Shown piece after piece: positions 2,790 through 62,930 of a stretch of 63,085 bases of DNA; positions within the stretch are counted from its first letter, which is position 1, and each line of letters begins with the position of its first letter. The notes below the pieces were generated by a model. That model worked only from the letters and a program-made list of their open reading frames with translations. It had not been told where the DNA came from and did not search any database. Source of the DNA: Hydrolagus affinis (taxonomy: Eukaryota); NCBI GenBank assembly GCA_012026655.1, contig JAAILG010001683.1, positions 1-63,085 of the forward strand, written 5' to 3'. The position numbers and the translations under genes were made by a program.

Positions 2790-2843
2790 TTGATGCCTCC
2801 CGACGTGAAAGATGCTATACAAATGAAATTGTGTTGTTGTTGT
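2790..2843 (+). mobile_element. Retroposon family B, 3' fragment
   Basis: cctcccgacgtgaaagatgctatacaaat...ttgttgttg. Confidence 0.7.
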
Positions 2844-3004: not shown

Positions 3005-3068
3005 TTCAGTGCTTTGGGACATCCTCCTGACGTGGATGGCGCTCTGCAGATGTAATTTTGCTGTGTTA
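3005..3068 (+). mobile_element. Retroposon family B, 3' fragment
   Basis: gctttgggacatcctcctgacgtggatggcgct. Confidence 0.65.
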
Positions 3069-10528: not shown

Positions 10529-10571
10529 TCTCTCTCTCTCTCTCTCTTTCACACACACACACACACACACA
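10529..10571. repeat. Compound (TC)n(CA)n microsatellite
   Basis: Seen directly. Confidence 0.9.
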
Positions 10572-11693: not shown

Positions 11694-11844
11694 AATAATA
11701 ATGACAAGCTTTGCATATGTTATAGCACCCTATCGTGTCTTAGCGACACCTCAAAACGCCTCACGGAATATAATATAATGTAACGTGAATTTCACAGAAT
11801 ATACATACTGTAAAGTGAATTGACTGAATATTTTTGTGGGCAAA
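11694..11844 (-). mobile_element. SINE family A, degenerate 3' fragment
   Basis: Matches the shared cacagaatatactgtaaagtgaattgactg segment. Confidence 0.7.
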
Positions 11845-13030: not shown

Positions 13031-13327
13031 ATAGTAATCCTTGCATTTGGTATAGTGCTTTTTACATCTTCTCAAAGCACTTCACAGAATATACTCTAAA
13101 GTGAATTGACTGTATGTTCGTGGGTGAAATGCGGCAGCCAATTAGGTACAGCGGTGTCCCACAAACCGTCGTGGATTAAAATGACCAATTTATTATTGTG
13201 GTTTTTTTTCTTGAGGAATTATTATCAAGTGTGTGGAGTAAGGAAACTTGCCCAAGGTTTCGCCCTGTTTGGAATTGAACCCAGGTCTCTTGCTTGTAAG
13301 GCAAGCACTCTAACCACTGAGTTACAG
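13031..13327 (-). mobile_element. tRNA-derived SINE family A, full length
   Basis: tRNA-like head with A box and B box (GGTTCAATTCC), shared body, and a 3' end matching family consensus ctatatcaaatgcaaggat(tat)n. Confidence 0.9.
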
Positions 13328-15041: not shown

Positions 15042-15098
15042 TGCTTCGGGACACTACCCCGTGTGAAGGGCGCTATATAAATGTAAGTTGTTGTTGCT
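15042..15098 (+). mobile_element. Retroposon family B, 3' fragment
   Basis: gtgaagggcgctatataaatgtaagttgttgttg. Confidence 0.65.
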
Positions 15099-15125
15099 GT
15101 GTGTGTGTGACGACTGTGACGTTAG

Positions 15126-15333
15126 AATAAAAATAATCCTTGCATTTGATATAGCGCTGTTCACATCTTCTAGATGTCTCAAAGCACTTCACAGAATGTA
15201 CTGTAAAGTGAATTGACTGTATATATGTGGGTGAAGCACAGCAGCCAATTGTGCACAGCATTGTCCTATAAACAGTCATGGATTGAAATGACCAATTTAG
15301 TATTGATGTTTTGGGGGAAGGGATTGTTATTAG
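15126..15333 (-). mobile_element. SINE family A, 5'-truncated
   Basis: Body and tail match other copies. Confidence 0.85.
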
Positions 15334-16502
15334 AATCCAGTGTTTCCACAGATCACCGTGATGCACTCCCAGTGATCAATCATATAATAAAATATATGCA
15401 TTGCTGACCACGCACTAATCAGAAGTAGATGCAAAGTGTGGAGGTTTTTAAGAGCTGTACAGTATACAGTACTTGATTCAGCTCCAAACCAAGACACAGA
15501 TATTAGGCGCGGCCCAAACAGGTTTGAACGTCTTCTCAAATGTCAAATACATTAATCCTACATTGTGAGCAAAACTTACAAATATTTAACTATTAATTCC
15601 ATGAGCTCCATTAGAGATACAATACACTGCACAAATTTACATTTATATAGCGTCTTTCACGTCAGGAGATCTTTCCAACCCGCTTAGCAGTATCTACACA
15701 TAGAAGCTTGGAATAAATCAACTACCACTGTATAAATAGATTATCTACATCCTTTTGAAATAATGTCTGCTTTGCCTATCGCAAGTGCACAGCTGTAAAG
15801 GAGCTTGTGAATATCAAATACAAAACTTGTTTTAATTCTATTAACATAGGAACTGGCAAGTTTAGATAAGATGTTCAAACTGAATGCTAAGGGGTTTAAT
15901 AATGATATCCTTTTAACAATCGCTGCATGATTATTCCCATAAGGCCATAAGATGAACACTAAATACTTTGCACCACTGAATGTTTTTAAAGAATATTTTT
16001 TTCTCTCTCCACCACGCCAAGTATATCCAACCCTTGCAACTGAAGTCTTTTTTTTTGCCAAATCTTTTCAAAGTAGTTTAAATTGTATGTCAAACGTGCA
16101 ATTGTTTAAAATGCAAATTTTTGAACTATTTTTATGATAATTTGCCTCCAAATACAACCTTTTGCAAGAATGGTGGGGACACCCATCCACGGCAAAAATT
16201 AATTGCCTGAAATTGTATCAAATGATGTTGATTCCTGCTGATTCACCACATGTTTTAGTGAGTGTAAAAGCAAACATGCCGTGTGACATGCCTTGTAATT
16301 TTTAAAAGCTGAATGTGGCAGTTCTTTTTAAGTCAATTACCGTGTGATTTATGAGCCCAATTAAACTCCTGCACTGCTGGTGGCTTGCTGTGCGACTGTA
16401 GTTGGCAGCCGACAATATTTGAAGACATTAATGCCAATCAATGAAAATTATTTTAAGTATAAATCAAATCTGAGGCATTTCCAAAATGCTCCATGCATTA
16501 AT

Positions 16503-16900
16503 CCGGTGAGCCATCCAAACTGGGAAGATCTTTGGTTTGACGCCTAGGCTGTGTACGATTGGTACTTGGGGACACTAGAGTTGGCCTCAACATCCTATAT
16601 TTGAGAGACAAAAATGAGCAAGAGTTCCTGATTTCAGTTTGACTTGAGTCAAGCGAGTTAATCCCCCTTGTGATCCAATGGTGTGTGTGTGTAAAAAAAA
16701 ACTGCTCTTGTCCATCATTGCAGCAACCTCCCCATGGCAGAGTTATCCATGTGAATCCTTAGTGTGGATAGATTGGAGGTCGACCGTTAGGCTTCCCGTG
16801 GAACCGAACAATTGTTGGCAATCTTTGACAAAGCTCACATGAAGAATGACCGTCTGTTAAGTGAGGTTTTTGCAATCCTATGGCGTTTGCTGGAACAACT
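16503..16900 (+). mobile_element. LF-SINE-like relic
   Basis: gagccatccaaactgggaagatc...ttggcctca...agagttcctg and gctcacatgaagaatgacc are collinear with my recollection of the LF-SINE consensus; not database-checked. Confidence 0.5.
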
Positions 16901-18504
16901 AGATGATGTAATGAAATCCACACAAACTAAGGATTGTCCATGACTATTAAGCTACTAAATTATTAATTGAAAGAAAATCTAATTATTTTGATTTAACTTA
17001 AAAGTAGATTAAAAACTGTACGTATTCTCATCGGTGCTTGAAGTTACCAAAGCAACGTTTCCACTGAACTTAATTTTCTTTTTATTCAGTAAGTGTTTTT
17101 TTAATTCCCTAATCAACTGACAGGGAAAAAAAATGTTGCCGATAATTTAATTCAAATGAAATGGAACCTTAAATAAGCTGTAAATTAAGATGTTTGCACA
17201 CCATCAGTTTTCAAAGAAGCATGTTCTTACTTTGGACTGTTGTTTGACTTGAGTCAAGCTAGCTAATCCCCCATGTGATCCGATGGTGTGTGTGTAAAAA
17301 AAACTGCTCTTGTCCATCAGTTTCCCACAGTGAAAAAGCCCAACACTGCCAGATTCTGACAAACAGGATCATCTGCGATGCTTGATGTCTGCACTAATCT
17401 CACTGGAGCAGAACATCTGTAAAGTACTTTTTAATCTGTCTGTTTTTGACTTGGCAGCAGTCGTGGTCAGTGCTGAAACACTCGTGTCTCATTTGAAATT
17501 CCAGCATTGTTTTGCTCTCCTGTTGGGTGGATAAAATGAAAAGGATTTTTAATTCAAGAGGACGGCTTTACCCATTCTATTCCAATTGGAAAGTCCATTC
17601 AGCAGCCAACATGCCAATGGTGTTGAGGGTTAAGCGGAGCAATAGACAGGTTGCGCAGACTTCAAAATGGTCGAACGCTCGCTTCCCAACTCAATTTAGG
17701 TGTTGGATTGACTTCCAAGAGCTGCCTATTACTTCAGCTTGCTCAACTCCATTCTTCATTGCATGGAATGAAATGCTATTCTTTCTCCAGGCAAGTGCAA
17801 AAACTAATCAATCCTACTCCAACAGTATCTCTTACCACCTAACAGTAGTGGTTTTGAGGCTGGAAGCAAAATGCACCTCCCTCAAGGAGGATATTCTCTG
17901 AGATGTGGCCTATATAATTAAGCACAGGAAGTTTCTTGGAGGGGAAAAAAATCCCCTCAATGCTTTGGAAGCACCTGGATTGAATTTTGGCTTATTTATT
18001 TAAAATATGATGGATTTTTTTTGACGCTACAGGAACCTGTTTCAGCTGATGGATGAACGGGAATTTAAAAACAATAGTTTGGGCCAATTTGTTTTCACGT
18101 AAGATAATTTTATTGAAACATCTAATATTGTGTCTCGGCAGAAGTTAGATCCGCGATATCTAGAGTACCATATGTGACCCCTAATTATTCTTTGGGAAAT
18201 CTTCAATCTGTAATATCCTAAGCAGTTCATTCAGTGCTAGAACACAATTGGTCTGTTCCCTATCAAAAGGAACTCATTCACAGAGTACTGTACAACTTTA
18301 TTCATGTAACCTTCAGCTGCCAATGTTAAGCTGTCAGATTTCAGGAGAACAATTAGTGGTGAAGATGGATGATCATGTTGAGGATCTATCAACAAGACTG
18401 GCCCTGTTGCTATACTCTGAATTTTCTTACCCTACAATCTGGATTTATTAAGTTTACAGTTAGAGCAATGATTAGACAAGCCATGGCTCCTATGTTTTGA
18501 AAGG

Positions 18505-18690
18505 AATTGTATCCGAGGGGACCTTAACGAGGTGTATAATAAGATTTTACACGGTGTTGAGAAAGTAATCGCAGGAAAATCCTGCAGAATAATAGGAGAG
18601 AAAGGTTTAAGAGTTCCAAGGTGACTTTCTGGACAGATAACGGGATGTATTTCTGGAAAGATTGCAGAGGAAGCAGGCTGGATAATCTGG
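18505..18690 (+). mobile_element. CR1 LINE ORF2 remnant
   Basis: cgaggggaccttaacgaggtgtataa...attttacacggtgttgagaaagta reads as a decayed RGDLxEVYKILxG motif. Confidence 0.55.
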
Positions 18691-20494
18691 AAGAATGAAA
18701 GCAAATAGTATCAAGTCCGAAACAAAATTCACCCAAATTTTTATTTTGAACACCGTATGAACGTTGCTTTTAAAATTGTTTAGCTCCTTTGTCACAGATT
18801 TTTCGAGGACTTTCTGATGGGGTAGGGAGTCCATGAATTTTGAAGTTATTTGAGGTCCTGCTTTCAATGGATAGTTTGCATCAAAATAATTATTTTCATC
18901 ATCTGCACACCTACACATTTTAAATGTTATAGGAATCATTGTGTTGGCCTATAGAGAGACCGAGCTGCCTCTGATTTCTTATAATTGACTTATAATTGAT
19001 TTCTAGATCAATTATAAGTGCCTCAGTTGAAATTAGCCAGTTCCTGTATGGCCTACATTGGCTTTACGCTAAGGTGTATTGTATATTTTGGGAAATCATC
19101 AAAGGGAACATTTTCCTGTGCACCGTTCATGGTGAGGTTCGGCAACAGATCCAGGGGCTATCCACTGGAATTATTCATTCCTTGTGTGCGCTGTAAGGCT
19201 CCTTCAACAAGTTCAACATCCGACAGATCATTAACCGCGGATCTAACTTCTGTACGTGGCATTGTGTCGAAAGCTAGAGGAGCCTGCAGGAAACGTGCTG
19301 ACTGCTCAAAGACTGATTTGTAAAGAGGTTTAAGTCGGGACGGCTGGTATTTGAGACAACTTTGTTTCCAGAATTCTTCTTTGAAAACTTTGAGTAAAAT
19401 GTTAGGCAGTCGGTTTTTTTTTGCTCGCGCTGCCTTTTAGACAAAATTTATGTCTGAGGGATGAACACGTCGCCTCCAGGTATAGCAAGTACAGACAGCT
19501 TATTTTCTGATTTGCCCTCCCCCACCAACCCTTTCTGGATAAAATACATCTTATATCTATCTGTGTACCAAACCAGGTGCTGCAATTAGATTACATTTAG
19601 TAAATTCATGTAGCATTTCTGGCCCTAAAACGTGGCTGGAATTAGTCATGATCGAAAGTTATACCTTTGCTGTTTTTAAGCCAACAAGTGAAGTGTGCTT
19701 GCAAATTCTTGTGTTTGCACGTTCTTGTGGAGCTGGAATTACAGGCAATGTATGCAATACATATAATTTGATGACAGTTTATTCTCTTCAGTTTATAGGT
19801 GAGTCTGCTGCACATTGGATGAGACATGTTAAAATCCACTGACTTGTATTGTTAAACAACTTGTAATAAATAATATACACTCACTTCATCTTCAGAAGCA
19901 AGTGCTTCTGAAGTTATAGTAATGAACGAGTATGTTTGTACGTAATTTTTTTCTCCAAAAAAAATGCTTCTCTTCAGCACCTTAGTTATTCTGCACACTT
20001 TCAGACCGTGCTCTGTTCAGTTGAAAGCACAGCCCATGCCACCCTGTGGCAAACGTACGCTAATGCAAGTAATGATCATACGTGAGCGGATCTTTCAGAG
20101 TTCTGCACTGCAAGATCCCAATAGCTCACAGTTAAGTAACCAGACATAACGCAGATGGAAGTCTGGGATGGTTCAAATGCCTGTCTCTGCACTGTTGCTG
20201 ATAATGGCTTTGGATGAAAAGGTTAAATCATTGCAAACGTAGCTGCTTTGTTTAACTGTCTTGCTGTGCATTCCTGGCGCGAAAAAAAACCTGATGTAAA
20301 TCTCTGCAGTTGTGAAATGTAAACCCAAAATGACAAAAGTCGGGAGGGGGAGTGGGGGAGGGGTGGGGGGGGGGCTTGAGAAAACACACACATTTGAGCT
20401 GAATTGTTAGTTTGTGTTTCTATTATTGGATGCTAAAATCCAATTGTATTAAAGTGTCCCATTCTCAGTTGGCCATTTGTGTATACAGGTAAAC

Positions 20495-23407: not shown

Positions 23408-23571
23408 TCAGTCATCAGCTGCTTTGATTATTCTTTTGAGGCAACGGAGTCGTGACATAACCTCATCCCAGTCCACGTAACCACCTTCCAAGTGTCGGGT
23501 AGAATTCCCTGTAGTAATGTAACTCTGACGTCCATGCAGCAACCTCCAGTTATCAAACGTTATCATATCTC
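23408..23571 (-). CDS. BBOX1: BBOX1 terminal coding exon 7 ([17 protein letters not shown]...IIKAADD*)
   Basis: Acceptor ttgttgttcacag|, TGA stop at 23410-23408. Lies within ORF 23408..23593. Confidence 0.95.
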
Positions 23572-26500
23572 CTGTGAACAACAACAACAACAATTACACT
23601 TGTATAGCGCCTTTCACGTCGGGAGGGCGTCCCAAGGCACTGGACAGTCACTGTTTCAGACCCGAGCTGGGGTGTCGGGGACGGGGAGTGTGGAGGGTTA
23701 AGTGAACAGAAACATCATGGGACAATTGTCAGCTGTTTCATTACTTTGGTTAAATAATCCACTTACAACAGGAAGGATATCTTATCCCTTGCCAAAGGGT
23801 TGTACAATCTAGATCCCAATTAACAATTAATATTGATTTGTCAATTACTGTCGATGGCCTTAATTCGCCCGAAACCTTTTCAAATATCGTTGTGGAGCTG
23901 AATGGTATTTGGAATCCGAGACAGCCATAGGTTAACTGAGAAGTACTGCACTACACAGAGATGTCTTATCGTGAGATTGTTTCTTGATCGGTAGTTCACT
24001 TTGCTGCTGCTTTCAGATTGGAAACCTGATCAAAAGCTAATGGTTTCCTTCCTTCTCCCTTTCGTTACAATTGCAAGGCAGAAACAGACTGCCGTGCAGT
24101 TAAATGAATCAGCTTGAAAAGTGCAACTGATTCATTCATAAAACTACTTGATAGTTTAGGAAGTTAGAGCGATCACTGCTCCTCGCTATGCAATGTAATA
24201 ATAATAAGAATCCTTAATTTGATATAGCGCTTTTCACGTCCGCTAGACGTCTCAAAGCGCTTGACAGAATATACTGTAAAGTGAATTGACTCTATATTTG
24301 TGGGTGAAACGCGGGAGCCAATTGCACACAGCAGTGTCCCACAAACAGTCGTGGATTGAAATGACCAATTTTATTATTGTTTTTTTGAGGGACAAGATTT
24401 TTAAAAACAAAAACGCATTATACACTGTATGTAATTGCTTGAATATTGCAGTGATAGTCTGATAGGAATTTCTGTTCTGTTCTCTGGATTGCCTCACCTG
24501 CTTCCATCTTGAAGGTGACCAAATTCTCCGGCTTGTAAACCAAGTTCTCGAATTGCTTGAGAGCGGAATAGAACGGGTGGACCTGCTCCACAGGTATATC
24601 GAAGACAGAGTCCCGAATGGCATCACTATAATTAATCCGAACAACATTTCCTTTGTGATCCAACCTGTGCAAAAACGATAAAGTATACATTTATTTCATA
24701 TAGATACAGTCTAGAAACAGCTCCTTTTTTTTATTTTAAGGTTACAGTAAAGTCCACTGTTTGGTCTAGTCTTCAAACAGTTTTGCAGAATAAAATTGCC
24801 TTTTGGAAAGCAGTAACTTTGGTTACAGAGCATCTGGTAATGTCCTCGTATGGCCTTAAAAGCTTAAAGGATATGAATGGGCAGCTTTCGGGACTGAAGG
24901 AGACTCTTTCTGATTGTGTGGTTTAATCTGACATTGCGGATCAGGGACTGGCCAAACTACTGAGTACTGAGGCTAGGTTTGTATATCATAGACAAATCGA
25001 CGTTCTTTTTTGTGGTGTGTTTTTCTGTGTGCTGAGGTGTAGCTGGAGGTGGAATGTTTCCCCCTCTCCATTTTAATGCTGACTCCAGTGAAGAACAGCA
25101 CAGGGCAAACATTCAGCGAAGCTTCCTCTATTTACCTCGGCAATTGACTTTAAACCCTAAATGTTTAAACCCTTTAAACACTCTCTCTCTCTCTCTCCCT
25201 AACCACCTCCTTCCCATTGCAACCATGTAAATGTTCCATATAAAATCTGAAGCAAAAACACACATTTGTTGACCTAAAGAGGCAAACACTGCAGTCTTCA
25301 TGTGAAAAGGATAGCCGACAAAAGTCATCCCAATAAAAGCAAATCATTCAACTATTATGCCACCAGATGGCAGTAACACTGAATTTGTGAAGTTACTGGT
25401 ACCTTGATAGCCAGTAGATATTTATGCTGAATGGCTTTCAGGTACTTTTTAATACAGTATTTGTATTGAATAATTTAATAGATGCGATTGGAATAATTTC
25501 ATGAGATTTAATCCATAAATCAATGCAGTTAAGAGTATTTTATCTGAAGAAATGTGCATTTCGGGATATAGTCAGTTTTCTTACGATTTCATATATTAGG
25601 CCGTTCAAAATGTGACATTTTAATAGAGTAATGGGAGAGCAGCTGATCAGGGCTGTCCTTCCAACCTAACAATGTCAGTTATAGGCAGGTAAAAGGGCTG
25701 CTGAAACAGTCTGAAAGGATGCTAGTAACAGTAATAATAATACTCCTTAAATTTGATTTTGTGCCTTCATATCGCATTGCAAAAATGCTTTTAACGTTTC
25801 CTTTAAAAACGTGACCAAAAATACGAGTACATCTTCAGCAGAGGGTTCGCGTTTTGCAAGAGTATGTGCACGCGTGACTTTAAAGAATAATACGGAATCC
25901 AAACGCACTGTTGGGGAATGTTTGGAAAGAAAAGCGTGGAAGAGATCTCAGCTTGTCGGTCTGTGCCAAAGGGTCTAAAGATGGCCTTGGGGTATTGTAT
26001 TTCTACTGACTCTTGCATACACATGTGTGCAGTGATCTCCCAGCTTGGAGGAGGCTGAAATAAAGGGAATCTTTGTTCCTTCCAACAAACCCCTTCGTGG
26101 GAAGGGTTTTAAGCCCTGGTTTCCAGCACAGAGGCTGACACTGATTATTTACTTGACGCTTTAAGAAGGGAGCATTTATCTTGAGTTGAGTTTGTGAAAG
26201 GGGCCTCCTTTGTTTGGAACGGACCGGACAAGCGAGGGGGACTACCAAGGCTTGGTGCTCCCTGAGCCTTGGCATGTGTTCTGGGAGATTATTACAATGT
26301 AGTCATCAGCACCGATGGTCCTTTGGCCCAGACATTGTCCTCAGCCAGACGTAATTGTGCTCTATTACCATATGGACCTCGACTGGGAGAAAGGCCAAGA
26401 AAATGGGATTGGAAGACTTGAGTATCAGATAGCGTTGTTGATTGACGTGTGGACTCTGTGCTTTTAAACTGCTTTGCTAAGATAAACAGCAATTTCTTAG

Positions 26501-29500
26501 TGTATTTGGACGTTTAATGTTTACTCTGTAAGTATAAATGGCCACCTGCAAATAGACACTGTTATGTCATCTGTTTGTTCTGTACCTACTCTATGGTCTT
26601 GTTCTTGGACTGCACAGAGAAATCGCAGTGATCGACGCCGATATCTGTGAAGTCAACCAGCGTGGTGGTAAGGATTCGGAAAGCTTCGGGACTGTGTTGT
26701 TTGAGTTGACTGGCGATGTGGAATCCATCAGCGATTTTATTTTCACCTCCAACCTTCGCTTGTTTGATGCAGTGGAGAAACTGAAGCTGCAAACACAAGT
26801 TAAAGGTTCACCTTTAAATGAATTTTGATAAATATTGTCTTGAAATGAATCTGTCTCTTTCCGTTTTGTCTGTGAAAGATTCAGGTTTTATAGTAACACT
26901 CGAAACGCTTGTCGGAGGCTTGAACAATCTTCAAGGGTGGAACAGGCCGAATGGCTTATTGGAGAGGCTTATGGCAGTGCAATGTAAATTCTATTACACC
27001 TATTAAAGTGCTAGGAATCGCAGAGCAAAAATACATTATGTTTAGAGCATTCATTACATCAGTGCACGGAGGAGCACTGTGTTCAGTTGTCATCATTAGA
27101 CCGAGAAATATATCCAGACAGAGGAAAAGTATTCTGAGAAAGGCAACGAAAATGATTTTACAATTTTATTTGATTGAGCTATAAAGGGAGGTAATTTTTT
27201 TTATCCTCCAGCGGTTAGAGGATAAATTTGCTGAAATGAACTAAACCGATGAGGTAGTTGCACTTTAGGGTAGGATTGCCACAGCTGTTCAAATTGATGT
27301 AGTGCTGCCAAAGGCTGCAGTAAACACTAACCCAGCATTAAAATGGGAATTAGATCTGAATGTGTGTGGAAGCTTAAATGTCTGCAGGCGCTTGTAGGTG
27401 AGATTGAGTCATTGGTGCTTCGTACGTAAAAGTGTTTACAACAACAACAACTTGTGTTTACGAGGGGCAGGAGCGCTCAACAGTGGCGGACCCTGATCTC
27501 AAGCCTTTGGGTGGGAGAGGGGTAGGGGGGATGGAGGAGGTGACCCTAAGCACAGTCGCAGTGGAAAGCCTTCAGTCATGATGTAATAGGGGGTGGATGG
27601 GGACAATGTGGAGGGATTGGGGAAAATGCCCAAAGTTTTGGGGGAGCGGGGGTGGGGGGGAGCGGGGGGGGCAGTAGCTGAAGTTGCCCTTGTGTTCTTA
27701 ACAATTTTATAACATTTTATAAATAAACGCAAGTTACTTATCATCGGTACTCTCGGTTTCTCAGCTGAACATTCTAGTGGCAAATGAATCCATTTCTATT
27801 TCTCCAGTGAGGATTGTGCCGTCTCTGGCACTTAGGGCTATTTCAACTGGTATGTTGGTAATGATGTGTGGTGACTGTTCAATTGTCGGAATGCTATTTT
27901 TTTTTGCCTTTTTCAACGAAACGGCTTACCCCGAACAGCTTTTAAGTCTTAAAATGAAGACCTGTTTTCAATTATTGAAATTTCAAAATTTAACTACCTG
28001 AAATTGACACAGCAGTGCACTCGATATCATCTTCCGAGGATATTGACAGAGCAGGAAATCAAACTCCTCATCAATGAGATGTGGAGGAAGTAAAACCGCA
28101 GAAATAAACGAAGTCAGAACCAGTAGATTGCCAAAATGTCACAGCGAAGAAGGAAGCCATTTGGCCCATCTTTGAAAGAGCTGTCCGATCAGTTCCACTC
28201 CCCAACTCTTTTCCCATAGCCTTGCAAATTTTTGCTTTCAAGAAAGTTATTAGGGAATTAGTGTCCACCACCCTTTCAGACAAGGCAGTGCTTTCCAGAT
28301 AGTAACAACTCGCTACATCATTTTTTTTGGCTTATCAACTCCTCTCTTGTTCTTTTTTCAACTCTAATAATAATAATAATCCTTGCATTTGATATAGCGC
28401 TTTTCCCATCTTCTAGACGTCTTAAAGCGCTTCACAGAATATACTGTAAAGTGAGTTAACTGTATATTTGTGGGCGAAACACGGCAGCCAATTTGCGCAC
28501 AGCAGTGTATCACAAACAGCCGTGAATTGAAATGACCAATTTTTATTATTGTGTTTTTTTTGGAGGAATTATTATTGGACATCTTAGGAGAACCATGTAT
28601 TCCGAGATCTCTAAGGCAGGAATCTTCAGATGTTTTTCCTGTTGTTTGTGTTTCCGGGGAGTTGTTTTGTGGGATGGGCGATTCCAGCCATAATTCTTTG
28701 ACCATTTATAATCACCGTTTCTATCCAGTTCCAGCTCAGGGCAACTTCCACCACAAACGCAATGTTCACCATTTCAACTATAACCTGACCACTGCCAATT
28801 CTCTTAGTCAGCACATGCATCCTTCAAAGTCCATTCAATTGGCAAGAATCTCTTTGTCCTTATGTTCAGCAGAATGAAATGGGAGACCTATAATACACCT
28901 TGCATTTGATATAGTGCCTTATCATGTATTTGAGATGTCTCACTGTGCTTCACAGAATATACTGTCAAGTGGAATTGACTGTATATTTGGTAGGCGATGG
29001 AGTTTCACGCACAAAGCAGACATAAACTAGATTAACTTTGCACAACAACGAGATACAAGGCGCTTTAGCTGGATTGTTTTATAATCTATGTTTGATGGCT
29101 CACATTCTCTAGCAGTGACATGTCTAAACTTTCAATCCAAGAATAGAAGCCCATGTGTTCCTCTGTAAAACAGAACTATGCTAACCTGTAGTCTATGGCA
29201 TTAATCAATGGCACAGTCCCGTCAATCTGCCTTAGTCTCACTTTCTTCACTAGTCATTTTATTGCTCGTAAGAGACCAGCAACAACAACTGAAAGAAATA
29301 CCCCAATCTTGTGATATAGAAATAATGATTCAAAACTGCATGGTTCGAACTCAGACCTACCTCAAATCCCACTTGCAACTATAAACATTAATTTGCTCAA
29401 TTTATGGAATGTTACTGCTAAGGATTGCTTCTCGTAGATTCTCCTACATGTCACGGTTACTAAACAAGTATACTTTGTGCGTTCATTACTATTATTTCCC

Positions 29501-35500: not shown

Positions 35501-36539
35501 CATCTCTCTCTCTCGTGTGTTGCAAATACGTGATTTTACTTTTTTTCCCCCTTTTTTAAACATTTGTGGGAACGGTAGACTGGACTAGTGGGGATCGAAC
35601 TCCCAGTTAAACAGACAAGCTGGCTAATGCTGTGTAAGCATTGACAGGCAAACGTTTTCACTGAAAATAAGAGCAGGCAGGCTTTGAACCTGACTGCCAT
35701 GTATCACACAGCCTGCCACAGGTTATTTTATATTTTTCTCATTAATAATTTTTACAAAGTAATTTCAAAGGAAAGATTTTAGGCAACAGCAAAAGTTCTT
35801 ACCCCCGGGGGATTGTGCAGTGATGGGTAATCTGTGTGCAGGCTCAGATTCCCAGATGTGTAGGCCAAATTGTTGGCATCAATCTTATCCTCCACTTGCC
35901 AGGTATACCTTAAATTTTTTTTCAAAAAAGCACATAAAATCAAGTTAGCCCACAATGTGTACTTGCTAAATTCACCCTGAGATTTGATGTGGCTCGATTG
36001 GGTCTAAAACGGAAAGACAACAACAACAGTTTGGACTATTTCTTGCCTTTAAACTATTTCCTTTTCTCTGTCGGTGCAATCATTTGTGTTTGTGCAATTT
36101 GCGAAGCACACGCATCATGTTAAAAATGTCAAGCAATGTTACACAAGTATTTTGGACATGTTTACGGCAATTGCATAGAAACGGGTCGGCAGTAAGAATT
36201 TACTCCTCAGCACTAACCTTCGGAAGAAACTACAATTGGGAATTGGTTTTTAATCTTCTTATTTTGGTAATTTTTCAAAATTGCTGCAGTAATTAAGGTT
36301 TCCTCTCGAGAGCTCTTTTCTACAATTTATATCTCTGAAATATTTGTGTATTCCGTGAGGCTTAATTTTTCAAAACTTTGCATTTTTCGTTTGTCTCTTT
36401 TAACGTTTTCATTTGGTTAGGATATTCATTCAGAGGACAACTAGCTGGCGGTATACAAGATTAGGTAGGGTCAAAGGATTCAGCGCCATGGGACGTCCTC
36501 TCGACGTGAAAGGCACTATATAAATTTTTGATTGGTTGG

Positions 36540-42500: not shown

Positions 42501-45500
42501 TCTGGGAGAATGCAGGACAAATGTACTGTTCTTTCATTACTGACAAAAGTAGAAGTACTCTTTAGGGTGCTTCTTATATAGCCAAATGTAGCATTATCTG
42601 GGACGGAGTGACAGAACGTGTCATCACTCATACAGCTCTAGCTGGGGCCACTGTGATTGCAACCGTGGTGAAAGGAGCTTCAATCAGAATGTCATTACCA
42701 ACGCAAAGAGATGATCGTTGCATGCAACAACCCACCCCGCCCACACCACCCTTTCCCAAAAACTAGTTGAAATAGGCCTAATTTACAGGTTACTTGCCCA
42801 TGTTATCTGCCCAGAGCATTGCCGACAATACAATCAGTAATGCTCAGCGACTCTCTGCAATGGTGTTTCCGCCCAGACGATGAACTCAAACAACAACAAA
42901 TTACATTTATAGAGCGCCTTTCACGTCGGGAGGACGTCCAAAGTCCCGACATGAGCACGAACCCACAATCTTCTGACTCTAGAATGCTACCAGATGAGCT
43001 AGGCTGATGACTTTGATGCTAAATCATGGCTTGGGCATTAGGCAACATTTCTGTCAAATTAAGCCCCCAGTGATTCTCTACTTTTGGTGAGTTTCCATTT
43101 GCTGATTTGTGGCATTACTCCAGGAAGTTCTGCTGAGACAGGGAGGGAGAAAATAAAGCAAGTAACCAGAGTACCATTCTCATGCACCTTCTGCCAGGAA
43201 GATTATAAATTGTAATAGCTGAGGTTTCAGACCTCATTTACCAGACTTAGTTGGTAATGGGAGGCTGAGCACAGTAATATAATATAAAATAAGGGTGTCC
43301 ATGGTGACTATTGAGCAATATAATAATAATGATAATAATAACACTTGCATTTGATAAAGCACTTTTCACGTCTTCTTGACGTCTCAAAGCGCTTCACAGA
43401 ATATACTGGAAAGTGAATTGACTGCATATATGTGGGCGAAACGCAGTAGCCAATTGCGCACAGCAGTGTCCTATTAATAGTGGTGGAGCCTGGCACCGAG
43501 CTGGGAGATGCTGATTGTAAGCTCAGTCAAAGAGGATTGACTCCAGGCATATTCTGAAAAAGGGGAAGGAGGGCGCAAGGTGGAGGGATAGAGGGAGAGT
43601 GTACTAGCTTTGGGGCATAGTGGCTGAAAGCCCAAGACTATGAAATCAAATACATTTGAGGAGCTTGAACTCTTAACAAAAAAAACTTGCATTTAGGGAT
43701 CCAGGTTGAAAAGTCCCAAAACTATTTAAAAAGTTTAAAATGTGAAAGAATGCATGTATTTACCACTTCATCCAGTGTAAATAACAGACAGGGTAATCAG
43801 AATGCTGTAATATTTAGTGACCATTGACAATTTTTTGCTTTACCTACCCATAAAATGTCATCCTGTGGTAGCCAATCCTCTCGATCACTTTGGTAACTTG
43901 TCCCTTTTCCGTCGGAGCACCTTTCAGCACTGCCATTCCTACTCTCCGAAGACTCCTGAGCCACTGATACGCAACTTCATCGTCATTGAGCACCCCATCA
44001 AAGGTGGTTGTAGGAATCTGGAGGTCTGAGCCCCAGTACTGCTTCTCTGTAAAACAAAAGATTGAAAATCCAGATCAGCTTGTGTTGCACTATAAACACA
44101 AGATGGTAGTGTTCTTTGCAAGAACCATAAAATACTATGAGCAACCAAGTCAATGGAGGTAAAAAATCTATATATTTTAAAAATACCCTGTTAGGGTGTA
44201 CACTAAAAGAGCAATCTTTTAGTAATGCAGCTTACCTGAACTCCAAACAAGAATCTAATAGTAATCCTTGCATTTGATGTAGCGCTGCTTCACAGAATAC
44301 TGTATACTGTAAAGTGAATTGACTATATATTTGTGGGTGAAATGCGGCAGCCAACCCGTCGTGAATTGAGTGACCACATTATTATTGGGGGGTTTTCTTG
44401 AGGGATTATTATCAGGCGTGTGGGGTAAGGAAACTTGCCAAAGATTTGGCCCTACTGGAAACAAAAACCAGGTCTCTTGCCTGCGAGGCGAGTGCTCTAA
44501 CCACTGTGTCTCCGCATACAATGTTTGTTGGTGGAGAGCTACTGTTGATCCAATGGAGTGTGGCTAATGAAATGTTAGAATGTGAATTAAGATAAGTTCT
44601 GGATATTTAAATGTTCTGTTTGAAGAGCCACTTACTCACACAGAGGGAGATCTTATTTCTGGGTGCTCAGCTATTAGTGGTCTGACATACCTTGTAATGG
44701 CCACTTACAGAATAAGCACTAGTGGGATCTTGGTTTCTTGCCCAGGAAACAATAGGAGTTGTTAATGATGGACTGTTCATAAAAGTCTCAACAAGTCGTT
44801 CATTGTGTGCTTATGAGAGAAATTCAGTTTTACAACAAAGAAGGAACGACTCTCTGCATTTAGTGAATGGTACATTATAGCGACAATTGCTTACAGGAAG
44901 GAGTTGAGAGAAATCTTGTTCATTAATACAAGTATTTAATATTCATTATGTAGTTTACGAATGAAGCAGCTGGCGGTACACAGGTGAATGCCAGAGTGAA
45001 CATTATCTAAATCCAGGCCAACTAATACATTTATGAGACTGCAGCCTCAGAATTGTTTCTTTTTACCAGGGGGCGAGTATGAATTCTTGCATCTGTAATG
45101 TGATGTGTATACAAAACAACTGAAGAGCCTGTTAAGCTTGTTTAAGCTTGTGTTTTTCTGACACCCAGAAGAAAAGCTTCCCGCATCTTGTGATCCATAT
45201 CACAAGCAATGCTCAGAGTTACACCAGTGGTAGGAATGAGATGTACCCAGAACAATGCAGTCACACATTGCGATGGGATTTTTCGGCAGACATTGCAACG
45301 CGATTTGGCAAATTAGAACCCAGTACAGGCACAACACAGCATCGTAATAACACCAATAATCCTTTCATTTATTTCAAGTGTTACGATAGATTAAGAGCCC
45401 AAATACAGTACTCTCCTCGGTACAGGTCGGGTCTAGCAAACTCTGGAGTTGTAGCCGATTGTATTAGTTTTGTTTTATCTTACATTTCTCCTTCATTTGA

Positions 45501-54500: not shown

Positions 54501-57500
54501 ATGGAGAAAAATGTGAATGTGAAACCCAACTAATTTGGGCAAGGAGGGTATACTGCCGAATTATATATATTGTATATTGCCACAAAATATATTGTGAGGG
54601 TATTTTTTCTGTATACATATATGTAGTCATATATGGAGTCCTGTAGCTGAGTGGTAGAGCACTCGACTTACAAGTGTGAGACCTGTGTTCGAATCCAGAC
54701 AGGTCAGGCCAAAACCATGGGCAAGTTTTCTTTCTCCACATGCCTAATAATAATCCATCCAAAAAAAAATAATAAAATTGGTCATTTCAATCCACAACTG
54801 TGGGACACTGCTGTGCTCAATTGGCTGCCACATTTCACACACAAATATACAGTCAATTCACTTTACAGTATATTCTGTGAAGTGCTTTGAGACGTCTAGA
54901 AAACGTGAAAAGTGCTATATCAAATGCAAGGATTATTATTATTATTATTATATGTCTAGAGCCATGGCCAGAATGTGGCGAGCACACACATGGGTGCGAT
55001 TACTCAATGTAGCACCAGATCAAAAGGAATAAAAACAAGTAATAAATCTAAATTAATATTTCAAGTTCTGTCATTTTAATGGTGCTTTGTATTCAATTAA
55101 GGAATTGAGCACTCGCCCATTAATGAATGTAGTCCAAGATTTATAAATCACTGTGCAAATTGTTTCAATTATTTTCCCAAACTGCCTATTTTTAGTTCAT
55201 TCTCCAGTATTTTATTACCGACTTAGAAAAATGTTAAATTTAAGTCATTCCCTTGAAAAACATTCTCATATACATATAAGAAGATAGGTTCAAAAAGTGC
55301 GTCCAATGGATTGTTTGGGTGATGCAACAAAACATATTGTAAATGGAATTCTTGTCTCAGATCACTCATAATTTATAATTAATTCGAAATTCAATTATTG
55401 AACGTTTTAGGATCAGTACCTGGCATTAGACTAAGATGAAGACCTGGACGTTTAATTCATTAATAGATCCCACATTTGACTGGACCGAGAGAGATGCACA
55501 AACAAGAGAGCTGTTATGGTACTACAGATCCCCGGTAAAGGTGTCTATCTTACAAATGGTCACTAAAATATATAAACTGCAAACAACAAATTATATTTGT
55601 ATAATGCCTTTCACGTCAGGAGGTTGTCCCATTGAGGTTGTCCCATTGATTCCCTGACAAGCGTGAGACCTGTGTTCAAATCCAGGCAGGTCTAGGCAAA
55701 ACCTTGGGCAAGTTTCCTCACTCCACATGCCTATATAATAATCCCTCCAAAAAAAATTGGTCATTTCAATCCACTACTGTTTGTGGGACACTGCTCTGTG
55801 TAATTGGCTGCCGCATTTCACCCACAAATATACAGTCAATTCACTTTACAGTATATTCTGTGAAGCACTTCTGTGAAGTCTGGAAGACATGAAAAGCACT
55901 ATATCAAATGCAAGGATTATTATTATTATTTATTTTTATTATTTGGACCTGAGCTGGGAATTGGGATCAGGAGTAGTGGAGGGCCAGGGAGGTTTGGGAT
56001 AGGAGGCCCACCGAAGGCACGGTCGAAGAGGAGGGACTCGGAACAGAACTTTAAACGTGGTGACGTGCACCATTTTCATTCCTTTATTTTCTACTTGGAA
56101 ATTTTATACCACTACATTTTGATTCCTTTGATTACCTTGAATAATATAACCATGGTTGTGACAAAATACCAAGTACAGGTTATATTTAGAGGTCATTTTT
56201 CTAACAGTATGCATCAACCAGACATGATTTTCAGTTAAATCAGCAAAAACTGCAGTATAACAGTTTATTAGTCTGATTCACATTACAGGAAATACTTTGA
56301 GACGCCTTCTAGGATGCAATCTCCAGCTGCTTTTTAAAAGTTAAAATGTTCCTGAGCATTCCACTAAAACCTCAAATTTTTTTAAGACAGCAGGCAATCC
56401 CACCATGGCTTTAAAATTTTAAACGAAATAGTATTTGGGTGTTAGATATATGCACTACTTTGCTTAGACATTCCTTGCTATTGACTGACATTCACTAATC
56501 ATTTAACAACAAACAATTTAACTACTGATCATCAAATCATATGATATTTCATGACAGAAGATCATCATAACTGGATCGTCTTATCCCAGTCACTTGGAAT
56601 TTCTCTTTGGCTCCAATATCTATTTTATACTGGAATGCGCTAAATCCTATAGCAGTACTCCCAACTGCAGCCAAACTAATGTTTTATAAGAAGGGCTAAG
56701 AGTACACATTTATTGGCTATTACATTCCTTTTTAAGCAAATGTTGGAGAGAATAAAGCCCTTAATTAAAAGTATATTGTTCTTTCAACATCTCCAAATGG
56801 GACAGAGTTTCAAGATTGGTCTCTTTCACCCCAGTGTTAAGACTTGATTTCTGCATTCATTATATTTGATGATGTCTCAAAGTGCTTCATGGCTGCATGA
56901 TTGGACACCAAATTAGGAGGAAGGCAGATGAGTATGTGGATGGTCGAAGAGTTGGGTTTTAATGTGGGGTTGAAAAATAGAAAACTATTTTGTCCATTTG
57001 TCCACTGGAGCGAATTCTAACCCAACATTCCTTTCCAGTAGCTATTTTCCACTGGATTAAAATTCTGTGATCCAGTGGAATGATTGGCCCAGATGTTTGT
57101 GTGAAGTCAGGTAGACCTGGAAACTTTCAGAAACACTTATTTTCAATCTGGCATACACACACAGTGTCCCAGTTGCTCAAGGCAGGCGAGACCCTGGCAG
57201 TTTCCCCTATAGTGTTCACAGCACTAAATCAATCTTGCATGTTCTGACAAAGGAAGTTGAACAAAACTTTCCATGCAAGTAAGTTGAAGTCATAAGCCTG
57301 AAAAGAATTTTCAACAAAGACTTTTTATTAAATAGTAAGTGTTTTGGCATATGAAATGTAGTTTTATAATCAACCATGAGGCACATAAATTGCTTTTGTT
57401 GCAACCAGATGTATTGCTTTATATAGATTTAACAAAATCTATTTTTTAAAATACTAACGCTTTTATCACGAATTAGGGTGCAATTTAAGAATCAATTCGT

Positions 57501-60500: not shown

Positions 60501-62255
60501 TACATTTGGAATAATTATTTGGGGCTGCTAAATTCTTAGCAACTAACTAATCAAAATACCAACTCATTGGAAATTAGGATCCTGGCCCACATAATATACT
60601 GTTGACACTGCCAGCCCAATTTTGTGCAAAATAACATGTCTAACTAACAAGCAAGATATAGCAAAAGTAGCAACTTCTGTTGATGCAGTATGAAAAACGT
60701 TTAATGTCACTGGAAGCAATATTCTGTTACTAAATTCACTGGACAGTGAGTTTAAAAGATCCCAATTTGGGCTCTTGGCAAGATTGCTAGCAACTAAACT
60801 AAGCTGACATCTTATTATGTACATGCAAATTTATGTTAAATGTCTCTCTCTTGACCCTTACATTTGATTGTCAATATATATTTTCATATGTATATATATA
60901 ATATTGTGCTATAATAATAATCAAATGTAAGAGAGCGATAGATCAATAAACCGATTCAGGGCAGACACTATGTATGAAATTATTCACGATTTAGCAATTA
61001 CATTCTTACCTGTTAAAAACAAGTCTTCTTGCAATTTTTCTCTTCTTGATTTGGCAAAACATCTTTGCTTCAACCAATCTGCATTAAATTCACTGATGTG
61101 TTGGTCAGGCCAGGTGACTGAAATCTGGAGGTAAAGATCATCATTGCGGACTTAAAAAGTTGCAGTCAGTCAACCTGTCTGTTTACTTGTAAGCGCAATA
61201 AGAACTAAATTATTATTCGTAATGGCAAATGCTTCAATTATTATGAAAATAAAAACAAAGTAGCTCAGCATATTTAAGAAATGTTATCATTCCATTAGAT
61301 ATTTGGGGAGAGGACAAGTTTACAGGGCTATGTATGTGGAGAGAGTGGGGGAATGGGATTAATTTGGATAGTTCTTTCAACGAGACATGATGGGCCGAAT
61401 AGCCTCCTTCTGTGCTGTATAATTCTATGATTGTATTCTAATTCGCACAACACTAGCTCAAAAGGTCAGGGTGTGGATTTATATTGTGTTCACACACACA
61501 AATACTGCTGAGCTCAATTGATCCATCACAGCAAATGACTGAGTGGAACTAAGGAACAATCCACTCCCAAATTTGCAACCTTGTTATTCTGAATGAGATG
61601 GAAGTGATGAAGAACCAACAATTTTCAAACTGGTATTTTTACATTACATTCAGTAAAGTTTTCAAGCAATTGTAATACAGTATTTCATCATCATCTTAAC
61701 ATCTAAACCAAAATGCAGAAAACAAAAACAGAGGACAGCTTCGTAAACAGTCCTTTATTGAAAGATAACAATGTGAGGGGTGGGGGGGAATGGTTTGATT
61801 AATCTGAGTAAACACTACTATTGTTAGTATAATTTAAAAGCATTATTGTAAAGACTAGGAATTTTTGATAGTCAAAATACCTTTGCTGAATTGGTTAGGG
61901 TAACTTTCTCTGCAACCACATTCACATCCAGATCTGCAAGGGTAATCTTCCGTGCTTTGGCGGAATGCAAAAAGCACTGGGAACATTGGCAATTATCCCT
62001 TAACCACACGTAAGGATACAGACTTCCGCTTCCATCTTCCCAACGGACCTTGATGCATCGATCTTCATCATCGGCCTCCACTTTCATGATAGGTTGAATC
62101 GTTGCATTCACTTTCAAAGCTGAGGATGTATGTGGTCTGCAGCCTTGAAAAGGATGAGTGAGCGCTTTCTGTGGAGTCTCTAAGCTTCGGAAAAAAGCAT
62201 GTAGGTTTCTCCTACCATAGAACAATCTAGCTGTTTTGATGACTGATCTCCACAT
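23408..62255 (-). CDS. BBOX1: Gamma-butyrobetaine dioxygenase, spliced CDS join(62255..61881,61124..61010,44046..43848,35908..35803,26786..26590,24664..24498,23571..23408), 440 aa
   Basis: Seven exons joined by GT-AG introns give one uninterrupted 1323-nt frame. Motifs: [15 protein letters not shown] and WPDQH (Zn site), SLHTDYP (HxD), [10 protein letters not shown] (distal His), [11 protein letters not shown]. Exon boundaries fall where I recall them in vertebrate BBOX1. Confidence 0.95.
23577..23697 (-). mobile_element. Retroposon family B abutting the last BBOX1 splice acceptor
   Basis: Well-conserved core; the (TTG)n tail runs directly into ttcacag|exon 7. Confidence 0.88.
24196..24391 (-). 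mobile_element. SINE family A, 5'-truncated, in BBOX1 intron 6
   Basis: Body and tail match other copies. Confidence 0.85.
24498..24664 (-). CDS. BBOX1: BBOX1 coding exon 6 (167 nt, [19 protein letters not shown]...TFKMEA)
   Basis: Acceptor tttttgcacag|, donor CAG|GTGAGG. Lies within ORF 24418..24690. Confidence 0.95.
25358..25375 (+). promoter_or_regulatory. Candidate CTCF-binding site in BBOX1 intron 5
   Basis: tgCCACCAGATGGCAGta matches the CTCF core consensus CCACYAGRKGGCRS. Confidence 0.55.
26590..26786 (-). CDS. BBOX1: BBOX1 coding exon 5 (197 nt, LQFLHCIKQ...[12 protein letters not shown])
   Basis: Acceptor ttgtgtttgcag|, donor AGA|GTAGGT. Lies within ORF 26586..26798. Confidence 0.95.
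28130..28312 (-). mobile_element. CR1 LINE 3' end
   Basis: Minus strand reads tgtctgaaagggtggtgga...ggctatgggaaaagagttgggg...atgggccaaatggcttccttc. Confidence 0.75.
28365..28577 (-). mobile_element. SINE family A, 5'-truncated
   Basis: Body and (TAT)n tail match other copies. Confidence 0.85.
28889..28997 (-). mobile_element. SINE family A, 3' fragment
   Basis: Match to the 3' stem-loop region. Confidence 0.75.
32384..32662 (-). mobile_element. SINE family A, near full length
   Basis: Head TGTAGCTCAGTGGTTAGAG...GGTTCAATTCC, plus body and tail. Confidence 0.88.
33711..33811 (-). mobile_element. SINE family A, head only (tRNA-like Pol III promoter)
   Basis: TAGCTCAGTGG A box and GGTTCGATTCC B box, running into SINE body ttgggcaattttccttactccacacg. 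Confidence 0.85.
35803..35908 (-). CDS. BBOX1: BBOX1 coding exon 4 (106 nt, [35 protein letters not shown]), carries the HxD iron ligands
   Basis: Acceptor tttaag|, donor GGG|GTAAGA. Strong motif match; not in the ORF track. Confidence 0.95.
36481..36590 (+). mobile_element. Retroposon family B 3' end with the tail replaced by a (GATT)n microsatellite
   Basis: cagcgccatgggacgtcctctcgacgtgaaaggcactatataaa followed by a GATT/GGTT array. Confidence 0.75.
38117..38902. mobile_element. Non-autonomous Tc1/mariner (pogo/Tigger-like) DNA transposon or MITE, 786 bp
   Basis: Perfect 21-bp TIRs CAGTAGAAGCCCGTTTATCCG (38117-38137 and 38882-38902), TA on both flanks, no transposase ORF. Confidence 0.9.
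39405..39514 (+). mobile_element. Retroposon family B
   Basis: cagctcgggtctgaagcagtaactgtccagcaccttaggacgtccccctgacgtgaaaggcgctatac...ttgttgttg. Confidence 0.85.
41371..41498 (-). mobile_element. SINE family A, 3' part
   Basis: Tail and 3' body match. Confidence 0.8.
42003..42059. repeat. Minisatellite, 3 x 19 bp TTATTTGAACTAAATGTTA
   Basis: Three perfect tandem copies; a partial fourth copy at 42101-42116. Confidence 0.95.
42887..42942 (-). mobile_element. Retroposon family B, 3' fragment
   Basis: caacaacaaattacatttatagagcgcctttcacgtcgggaggacgtcc. Confidence 0.8.
42952..43008 (-). mobile_element. tRNA-derived head of an older SINE
   Basis: Minus strand tcagcctagctcatctggtagcattctagagtcagaagattgtgggttcg has A/B-box-like segments. 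Confidence 0.45.
43317..43472 (-). mobile_element. SINE family A, 3' part
   Basis: Tail and 3' body match. Confidence 0.85.
43848..44046 (-). CDS. BBOX1: BBOX1 coding exon 3 (199 nt, [12 protein letters not shown]...[10 protein letters not shown])
   Basis: Acceptor cttttgttttacag|, donor TGG|GTAGGT. Phases match both neighbours. This frame is not in the ORF track. Confidence 0.95.
44256..44506 (-). mobile_element. SINE family A, internally deleted
   Basis: Head, partial body and tail match. Confidence 0.85.
46016..46296 (+). mobile_element. SINE family A, with a 14-bp tandem duplication in the head
   Basis: GTGGCTCAGTGGTTAGAGC head, caagctggggaga x2, (TAT)n tail. Confidence 0.88.
47988..48292 (-). 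mobile_element. SINE family A, full length
   Basis: Head, body and tail all present. Confidence 0.9.
51507..51572 (-). mobile_element. Retroposon family B, 3' fragment
   Basis: (CAA)n tail plus core. Confidence 0.8.
53225..53435 (-). mobile_element. Old Deu-domain SINE relic (SacSINE1/AmnSINE1-like)
   Basis: Minus strand ccttcagacaagacattaaaacccaggtcccgtc...gtgaacgttaaa...tttgaaaagag...gggacattgctgtgtacaaattagctg resembles the Deu domain as I recall it; not database-checked. Confidence 0.55.
54312..54389. repeat. Tandem duplication, 2 x 39 bp
   Basis: aatatctactcata(g/a)gcagtcataggcacttgggattcc twice, one mismatch. Confidence 0.95.
54638..54950 (+). mobile_element. SINE family A, full length
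   Basis: GTCCTGTAGCTGAGTGGTAGAGC...GTTCGAATCC head, body and (TAT)n tail. Confidence 0.9.
55582..55631 (-). mobile_element. Retroposon family B, 3' fragment
   Basis: gcctttcacgtcaggaggttgtccca. Confidence 0.7.
55652..55930 (+). mobile_element. SINE family A, lacking the A box
   Basis: B-box region, body and tail match. Confidence 0.85.
57985..58068 (+). mobile_element. CR1-related 3' tail fragment
   Basis: gtggagcataaacgccggcatagaccagttgggttgaatggcctgtttctgtgctgtaa...ttctatg. Confidence 0.7.
61010..61124 (-). CDS. BBOX1: BBOX1 coding exon 2 (115 nt, [23 protein letters not shown]...LQEDLFLT)
   Basis: Acceptor tttacctccag|, donor CAG|GTAAGA. Translated by hand; not in the ORF track. Confidence 0.95.
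61295..61432 (+). mobile_element. CR1 LINE 3' end in BBOX1 intron 1
   Basis: atgatgggccgaatagcctccttctgtgctgtataattctatgatt. Confidence 0.75.
61881..62255 (-). CDS. BBOX1: BBOX1 coding exon 1 (125 codons, MWRSVIK...TLTNSAK)
   Basis: First in-frame ATG after an upstream in-frame TAG (the ORF-track start at 62291 is GTG). Contains [19 protein letters not shown]. Donor AAG|GTATTT, phase 0. Confidence 0.93.
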
Positions 62256-62387
62256 TTTTTCGAACTTTTTGTTGAAATATTTCCAGTACACTTGCCACCA
62301 ACAATGAACTTCCTCTGCAGCCTAGACAATATTCCGAAGTTGTTTTGTGGAAACCGAATTCTCCAAGCTCAGCGTTCAACGGTGTTT
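62256..62387 (-). other. BBOX1: Probable 5' UTR part of BBOX1 coding exon 1; implies a non-coding first exon further upstream, not located
   Basis: Acceptor-like ccttcactgtttttactag| precedes 62387; no ATG between it and 62255. Confidence 0.5.
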
Positions 62388-62930
62388 CTAGTAAAAACAG
62401 TGAAGGGTTTTAGAATTTACAAACAAGCGCAAGTGTTTGAATAAATATTGGCGCTTTATAATCTTCAGGACTAGTCAGTGGGGAGGGCTACGTGTATGTT
62501 TTTTTTTAGGGACCAGAGCAACAAAGAAATGACCAGAAAAATGTGCTCTGCAAATTATGGATCAGTCTTGTATATGAAAATCTAATTTGGGAACCTTTAT
62601 CAAGGTTTTTTTTTAAAAAAACTTTTACTGAACAGACTGTGGGCTAACTATCCAATGCTAACAGTTGCTATGCTATCCCCAAACAAACAATGGAATATTT
62701 GAACATTTTTCTGATAATAGTTCTGTGATAGAGTTTGACTCCTATTGTTTAAGCAAATTCAAGAGTGAATTCGATAGCTATTTTGCCCAGATATTGATTT
62801 GAGGAATATTGCATATTCAATCTATATTTTACTGTGGTCTGATTTTTTTTAAAATGCTGTTGCTGTGAATGTGAGGAAAGTAGGGTAATGTGGCTACTCT
62901 GGAAGGATGAGTTAAGGATGTTTGTACGCG

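Follow-up and report, generated by a model that had tools for sequence, protein, structure and literature searches.

Reviews of carnitine synthesis place the beginning of the pathway in mitochondria and its last step in the cytosol, the latter without any species caveat (PMC11016064, PMC13622191). We analyzed the gene for the enzyme of that step, BBOX1, in the chimaera Hydrolagus affinis, on contig JAAILG010001683.1 (63,085 nucleotides (nt), analyzed whole and referred to here as the window). Its predicted product of 440 amino acids (aa) carries an N-terminal extension, which is probably a cleavable mitochondrial presequence on an otherwise intact enzyme, and which mammals appear to have lost, likely once on their stem. 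From sequence comparison, we put the probability of this reading at roughly 0.8.

The closest described system is mammalian BBOX1 (387 aa in human; PDB 3N6W, 3O2G and 4BG1), which has the same domains and metal ligands as the window protein. It begins at the alignment column of window residue T52, without the extension, and is described as cytosolic in PMC13622191 and PMC11016064, whereas the window protein is extended. The paralogue TMLHE has the same fold and is a matrix enzyme (PMC11907856), in mammals too, but catalyzes the first and not the last step. A mitochondrial signal is predicted for mouse Tha1, and SHMT2 possesses the aldolase activity (PMC11016064); a preprint with mammalian data attributes butyrobetaine in mitochondria to ALDH1B1 or to an ALDH9A1 isoform targeted there, with exchange through CACT (PMC13622191). 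ALDH9A1 and AKR7A2 have a presequence in front of an internal Met (PMC13219423, PMC13622191), as window BBOX1 probably does. Yeast Fmp12/Aim17, a distant homologue in the same dioxygenase family and not necessarily a BBOX1 orthologue, is mitochondrial, has a size that fits presequence removal and has a shortened N-terminus (PMC5348986); a fly study picked its BBOX1 candidate for the lack of a targeting sequence (PMC4982618). BBOX1 is not mentioned in the main text of PMC12718117 or PMC13219423, and the available part of PMC12594208 gives no localization. The open-licence literature (PMC and bioRxiv) yielded no account of a presequence in non-mammalian vertebrate BBOX1 or of its loss in mammals, and a mitochondrial location for BBOX1 of fish or birds may already be recorded in older biochemical work or in proteome tables. 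The closest sequences are non-mammalian BBOX1 proteins of 430-460 aa, such as those of Callorhinchus (XP_007885855.1) and Gallus (XP_004941389.2), which share the extension and a Met-Trp start with the window protein.

A preliminary description of this DNA had noted about 51 extra residues before the human start, with 5 Arg, 1 Lys and no acidic residue among the first 25. Both observations were borne out. T52 aligned with human Met1, and therefore 51 residues precede the mammalian start; residues 1-25 contained five Arg, one Lys and neither Asp nor Glu, giving a net charge of +6, which rose to +8 across residues 1-51. The features of this region that bear on the argument are as follows.

62103..62255, minus strand: N-terminal extension, residues 1-51, predicted mitochondrial presequence and linker (net charge +8)
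62217..62255, minus strand: predicted amphipathic helix, residues 1-13 (helical wheel)
62127..62138, minus strand: R40-P41-H42-T43, predicted processing-peptidase site (motif R-x(1,2)-[HQ]-[STA])
62100..62102, minus strand: T52 (ACG), homologous to the mammalian start Met by alignment
62085..62087, minus strand: Met57, an in-frame internal ATG at 62087 with A at -3, not conserved
62105..62218, minus strand: three out-of-frame ATGs (62218, 62200 and 62107) between Met1 and Met57, with T at -3 and opening reading frames of 12, 6 and 7 codons
62256..62387, minus strand: part of the 5' leader lying in the first coding exon, 132 nt, with no ATG and an in-frame stop near 62322; reads exit the window at 62389

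As a chance control, every ATG in the window was examined on either strand, 2248 in all. Open frames of at least 51 codons followed 129 of them, and three of these 129 encoded at least six Lys or Arg and no Asp or Glu within 25 residues, BBOX1 Met1 itself being one of the three. None of the 365 25-residue segments of the enzyme core reached the same composition. In the helix predicted for residues 1-13, M1, W2, V5, I6, A9, F12 and Y13 lay on one face and R3, K7 and R10 lay opposite. Compared with shuffles of its own sequence, the N-terminus was amphipathic over short spans (P = 0.07 for 11 residues, 0.02 for 13 and 0.05 for 14) and not over 18 (P = 0.55); amphipathicity is thus indicated for 11-13 residues and not for 18, so the predicted helix would be short. 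Related samples differed from the window at 62203, 62164 and 62044-62045: codon 18 was changed from Leu to Pro in both, and codons 31 and 71 differed (codon 71 reading Arg, Cys or His). Codons 1-13 carried a silent change only. From the Leu-to-Pro change at codon 18, residues 14-25 appear to tolerate a helix breaker.

The same features recurred across jawed vertebrates. Records were taken from three homologue searches (17 of 17 matches, the best 120 of 492 and the best 120 of 381) together with cluster members; named records were counted, unnamed non-mammalian transcript rows, fragments, some duplicate isoforms and invertebrates were left out, and the extension was scored as present at 38 residues or more. 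By this count, 122 of the 126 records from non-mammalian gnathostomes, one of them the window, have the extension: holocephalans 2/2, elasmobranchs 6/6, non-teleost ray-finned fishes 3/4, teleosts 47/47, the coelacanth, amphibians 23/23, lepidosaurs 21/21, crocodilians 1/2 and birds 18/20. It was found in none of 91 named mammals (monotremes 0/3, marsupials 0/14, placentals 0/74) and in none of 20 unnamed mammal-like rows. The preliminary description had called for a comparison of N-termini across these groups and had supposed that the extension might already be annotated in non-mammalian orthologues; the frame is conserved as counted here, and the long proteins do stand in RefSeq and UniRef.

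Composition was retained in these 122 extensions to a degree that sequence was not. Asp and Glu each made up 0.9% of residues, compared with 7.4 and 6.1% in the cores (1.8% versus 13.5% together), and Arg made up 9.6% compared with 6.4%. At most one acidic residue was present in the first 25 positions of 114/122, the net charge there was +3 or more in 102/122, and a Met-Trp start was shared by 98/122, within a pattern near M-W-x-S/A-V-A-K-x-L-L-R-x-K. The first 11 residues were more amphipathic than their own shuffles (P ≤ 0.1) in 82/122. Residues 1-51 of the window protein were identical to those of gnathostomes other than Callorhinchus at 10-23 positions. Cleavage by the processing peptidase follows a rule of Arg at -2 or -3, and the motif R-x(1,2)-[HQ]-[STA], which we take to be such a site, occurred in the last 26 residues of 71/122 extensions (shuffles: mean 15.8, maximum 26), at a distance fixed within each vertebrate class.

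The position of the extension relative to the fold was examined in the AlphaFold2 model of the Callorhinchus protein. The predicted local distance difference test score (pLDDT) was below 50 at residues 1-4 and 7-50; by block it was 28-45 for residues 1-50 and 86 or higher for residues 51-100. A low-confidence helix spanned residues 3-12, and the fold began at a strand formed by residues 55-61. As modeled, the extension stands outside the folded domain. Because its composition is conserved while its sequence diverges, and because it lies before the folded domain, the extension resembles a matrix presequence; the description of it as presequence-like stands, and it is acid-poor, Arg-rich, opens with a predicted short amphipathic helix and is conserved across non-mammalian gnathostomes. 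A secretory signal peptide and the peroxisomal targeting signals PTS1 and PTS2 were ruled out by low hydropathy and missing signals. No hydrophobic core was present in the window extension (hydropathy at most 0.8 over 9 residues, no uncharged run longer than 6), and among the 122 proteins strict PTS2 and PTS1 signals were found in none (0/122 each), while a loose PTS2 was found in eight (8/122), the window protein not among them.

Direct evidence that the extension is transcribed came from RNA reads, drawn from three poly(A) runs of one sample from a close relative, which shows 8 fixed differences over 631 bases. A total of 222 reads fell on 61850-62480, with coverage from about 62389 to 61881 that ceased in both introns. 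Loose read ends were confined to two places, the upstream border at 62389 with 11 reads and the downstream border at 61881 with 34, with none inside the extension, and 33 reads joined 61881 to 61124. All first mates mapped to the plus strand, as expected if a minus-strand RNA entered a standard stranded library. Read depth over the extension equaled that over the core in runs X2 and X4. The extension is present in the mRNA and probably forms the true N-terminus. An alternative acceptor inside the extension was sought and rejected, as none was used in the 222 reads of this one sample. An upstream non-coding BBOX1 exon was located on a separate contig (L004) and ends AG|gt, which places the acceptor at 62387 and gives a leader of at least 164 nt; the coding-exon part of the leader has no ATG, and the nearest genomic ATG lies 476 bases before the upstream donor. 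About 165 bases before that donor, at L004:1361-1369 (G000:C41049), lies TCAAGGTCA, a single 9-mer noticed post hoc, which by consensus we take to be an ERR/SF-1-type nuclear-receptor site.

To place the extension in time, a maximum-likelihood tree was built from 48 cores, with the extension removed. Vertebrate groups came out as expected in this tree, and the label "no extension" changed once, on the mammal branch (support 100/99). Homologues from amphioxus, acorn worm, starfish, prawn, crab and sea anemone have long, basic, acid-free N-terminal starts. A distant search gave 89 anchored rows, 24 of them short; 43 of 62 extended rows passed a crude filter of at least three Lys or Arg and at most one Asp or Glu, in a set that is mostly unnamed and may include non-orthologues and bacteria. 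With such starts in invertebrate outgroups, the mammalian state is read as a loss. The extension is therefore likely ancestral, with one loss on the mammal stem before monotremes split. A lineage-specific gain is ruled out by its presence in every sampled gnathostome class except mammals, and the suggestion in the preliminary description that it was a speciality of this lineage was not supported: mammals are the exception. In AGXT, a presequence was lost in some mammals when the upstream start disappeared and an internal Met took over, and this happened repeatedly within mammals. The loss in BBOX1, unlike that in AGXT, apparently occurred once. What is new here would be the presequence pattern and its loss in mammals; the long RefSeq proteins and relocation through loss of an upstream start, as in AGXT, were known. 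Platypus and two placental-like rows (P0231, P0209 and P0219) carry 5-7 residues before the usual start, and the 5 extra residues of platypus resemble the end of the lizard/reptile extension and are a possible remnant.

The Met at the mammalian start column is also found outside mammals. It was present in Callorhinchus, the coelacanth, 20/20 birds, 2/2 crocodilians and 7/21 lepidosaurs, and in 0/47 teleosts and 0/23 amphibians. In birds and crocodilians this column provides a conserved downstream Met that would spare the folded domain. Where Callorhinchus, birds and crocodilians have this Met, the window gene has Thr (ACG) and, five residues further on, a Met of its own. The mammalian-start Met likely predates mammals and became the sole start in them. 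Honeyguide records and alligator isoform X2 (388 aa; P0267, P0108 and P0072) begin at this Met, and the short archosaur records are possibly a second loss or real short isoforms.

Several results weigh against a presequence lost once in mammals. The best 18-residue hydrophobic moment within residues 1-30 of the window protein was not above that of shuffles (P = 0.13), and the number of amphipathic extensions in the family dropped to 41, 36 and 28 of 122 at 13, 14 and 18 residues. The motif R-x(1,2)-[HQ]-[STA] was chosen after inspection of the sequences and is absent from 51/122. All the RNA came from one sample of a related organism that was covered at low depth, and the shallow run X3 fell to 1-2 reads at 62092-62157. 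The loss in mammals rests on protein records. Four named non-mammalian records lack the extension (a sturgeon model, alligator isoform X2, for which X1 has 440 aa, and two birds flagged as partial), the honeyguide RefSeq protein has 388 aa, with two woodpeckers of the same cluster long, and five uncounted transcript-derived rows begin at internal Mets and are possibly truncated contigs.

The alternative that survives best is that Hydrolagus affinis makes both forms, some ribosomes passing Met1 and starting at Met57, so that a cytosolic enzyme of 384 aa would exist in addition to the mitochondrial form. The preliminary description had proposed such leaky scanning, and its account of the codon was correct: Met57 lies at 62087 with A at -3, and the 440-aa product gives 384 aa from there. 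In favor of the proposal, Met1 has T at +4; the intervening ATGs are weak, each with T at -3; 61/122 orthologues, both holocephalans among them, have some Met between positions -8 and +9 relative to the core start; and ALDH9A1, the next enzyme upstream in the pathway, is dual-localized likewise in human cells (PMC13219423). The mechanism itself fared poorly. Met57 aligned with human Gln6 and not with the mammalian start, and its column is Met in 2/126 records and mostly Arg or Gln. By mapping of the Callorhinchus model, Met57 is the second residue of strand 1, and a start there would remove I56, the beginning of that strand, a position occupied by Ile, Val or Met in 121/122. Met1 likewise has A at -3, three out-of-frame ATGs precede Met57, and no reads spliced into the extension. 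ALDH9A1 and AKR7A2 have leaders of 4-20 nt or a weak first context together with a conserved second Met, and the leaky cases reported have leaders below 40 nt or a poor first context (PMC13219423), in contrast to the long leader of at least 164 nt and the non-conserved Met57 found here. No in-frame Met was present from residue 4 to core residue 9 in 35/122 orthologues, so an AUG-started short form is impossible in these and cannot be general. We consider dual localization through Met57 unlikely.

Less likely again is that the extension is translated and conserved for some other role, whether tethering to the outer or another membrane, binding a partner or controlling stability, while the enzyme stays exposed to the cytosol. 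Such a role would agree with the non-significant 18-residue amphipathicity test, with a Met-Trp start more fixed than most presequences need, and with a search of the Atlas with residues 1-56 that gave no usable match. The lack of a hydrophobic anchor and of strict peroxisomal signals, noted above, the retention of composition through sequence divergence and the cleavage-like motif near the core boundary all argue against it, and we regard it as improbable. That the extension is an untranslated leader or a habit of longest-frame annotation, with the true start near the core, can be dismissed almost outright: pipelines do favor the first in-frame ATG and a few records do begin at the core, but an open frame with a Met-Trp start and biased composition in 122/126 records from all jawed-vertebrate classes except mammals, 72% identity to the Callorhinchus extension, and the 35/122 orthologues lacking any alternative Met all contradict it.

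If the extension is a cleavable presequence, translation would start almost only at Met1 to give a 440-aa precursor, the helix at residues 1-13 would be recognized by the import machinery, and a cut near R40-T43 would keep about ten residues of linker on the enzyme. The imported enzyme would then make carnitine in the matrix alongside its paralogue TMLHE, from butyrobetaine made there or exchanged through CACT. Such chemistry is feasible in the matrix because TMLHE uses the same cofactors there (PMC11907856). On this reading, the amniote ancestor would already have had an internal Met where the folded core begins, and mammals would have kept it as their sole start once the upstream one was lost. 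We offer a wider scenario more tentatively, at somewhat less than even odds: most animals may finish carnitine in the matrix, with all four steps able to run there, the amniote ancestor may have had a two-start BBOX1, and stem mammals may have deleted the mitochondrial form, making liver and kidney cytosolic exporters of carnitine.

Under that wider scenario, the pathway split drawn from mammals would be wrong for fish, amphibians, reptiles and birds. Already if the extension is a presequence, the surprise would lie with mammals rather than with the chimaera: the textbook cytosolic last step would be a likely mammalian novelty, and a metabolic relocation would be dated to the mammal stem. Work on carnitine and BBOX1 inhibitors in zebrafish, Xenopus, chicken and farmed fish would read differently, because substrate and drug would have to cross the inner membrane. 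The two states would also provide a natural test of how matrix-made and cytosol-made carnitine affect fatty-acid import. Choosing invertebrate "orthologues" by the absence of a targeting signal, as reported for the fly gene (PMC4982618), would rely on a derived mammalian trait.

Apart from its N-terminus the gene is, judged by its sequence, an ordinary and intact BBOX1. It lies at the end of the contig on the minus strand in seven coding exons, which were found with the Callorhinchus protein and bordered at ag|gt; this was present at 6/6 coding introns, and the spliced model gives the 440-aa frame.

61881..62255, minus strand: coding exon 1, extension and GBBH-like N-terminal domain, 375 nt coding from the ATG at 62255, spliced to 61124 in 33 reads
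61010..61124, minus strand: coding exon 2
43848..44046, minus strand: coding exon 3
35803..35908, minus strand: coding exon 4, with iron ligands H254-x-D256
26590..26786, minus strand: coding exon 5
24498..24664, minus strand: coding exon 6
23408..23571, minus strand: coding exon 7, with the third iron ligand (DNWRLLHGR) and the stop
(exons 2-7 by Callorhinchus protein match and splice borders)

Coding exon 1 matched human BBOX1 structures (E = 2e-15), and the GBBH-like N-terminal domain PF06155 was found at residues 61-118 above its cut-off (E = 3e-10), with a Zn-binding Cys motif at residue 84 and the downstream His in WPDQH. The Fe(II)/2-oxoglutarate core is intact, with HTDY at 254, DNWRLLHGR at 393 and an open frame throughout, and exons 5 and 7 gave TauD matches. 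The closest relative was Callorhinchus milii BBOX1, identical at 330/388 core and 36/50 extension positions; identity to the primate-cluster representative was 223/385 over the core. The two holocephalan proteins were sisters (100/100) within a gnathostome clade (100/100) in the core tree, which did not include TMLHE, and TMLHE-like exons of the same genome were only 27-33% identical to BBOX1. These comparisons identify the window gene as an orthologue of vertebrate BBOX1 rather than TMLHE; from this orthology it would hydroxylate gamma-butyrobetaine to carnitine, and its import into mitochondria would follow from the extension.

Family searches of the genome yielded the window gene, TMLHE-like exons, a broken processed BBOX1 copy and nothing else. 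No second, cytosolic BBOX1 gene was found, in an assembly fragmented into 245,464 contigs, so that its absence is unproven. The processed copy (L005:952-1692, G000:C1837) has exons 3-6 joined without introns at 91-94% identity, followed after exon 6 by about 90 bases of intron 6. It carries frameshifts and a stop, with no exon 1 or 2 in the stretch covered, and resembles a retrocopy made from an incompletely spliced transcript. The TMLHE-like exons lie on two other contigs (L003:1500-1670 and L006:498-791), and we take them to be TMLHE from their motifs and their low identity to BBOX1.

Downstream of BBOX1, open reading frames of 90-130 codons at 1172-19436 had no Pfam (above cut-off), PDB or Atlas support, and no neighbor gene was identified there. 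Short high-copy repeats, probably of the short interspersed nuclear element type, occur at 61340-61440 and in about 14 other places (e.g. 24196-24299, 28365-28469 and 54843-54951), and the copy at 61340-61440 is matched by DNA contigs and RNA reads in very large numbers, on both strands. The chicken BBOX1 record (P0113) carries six inserted residues where exons 4 and 5 meet, probably because its model uses an alternative splice site.

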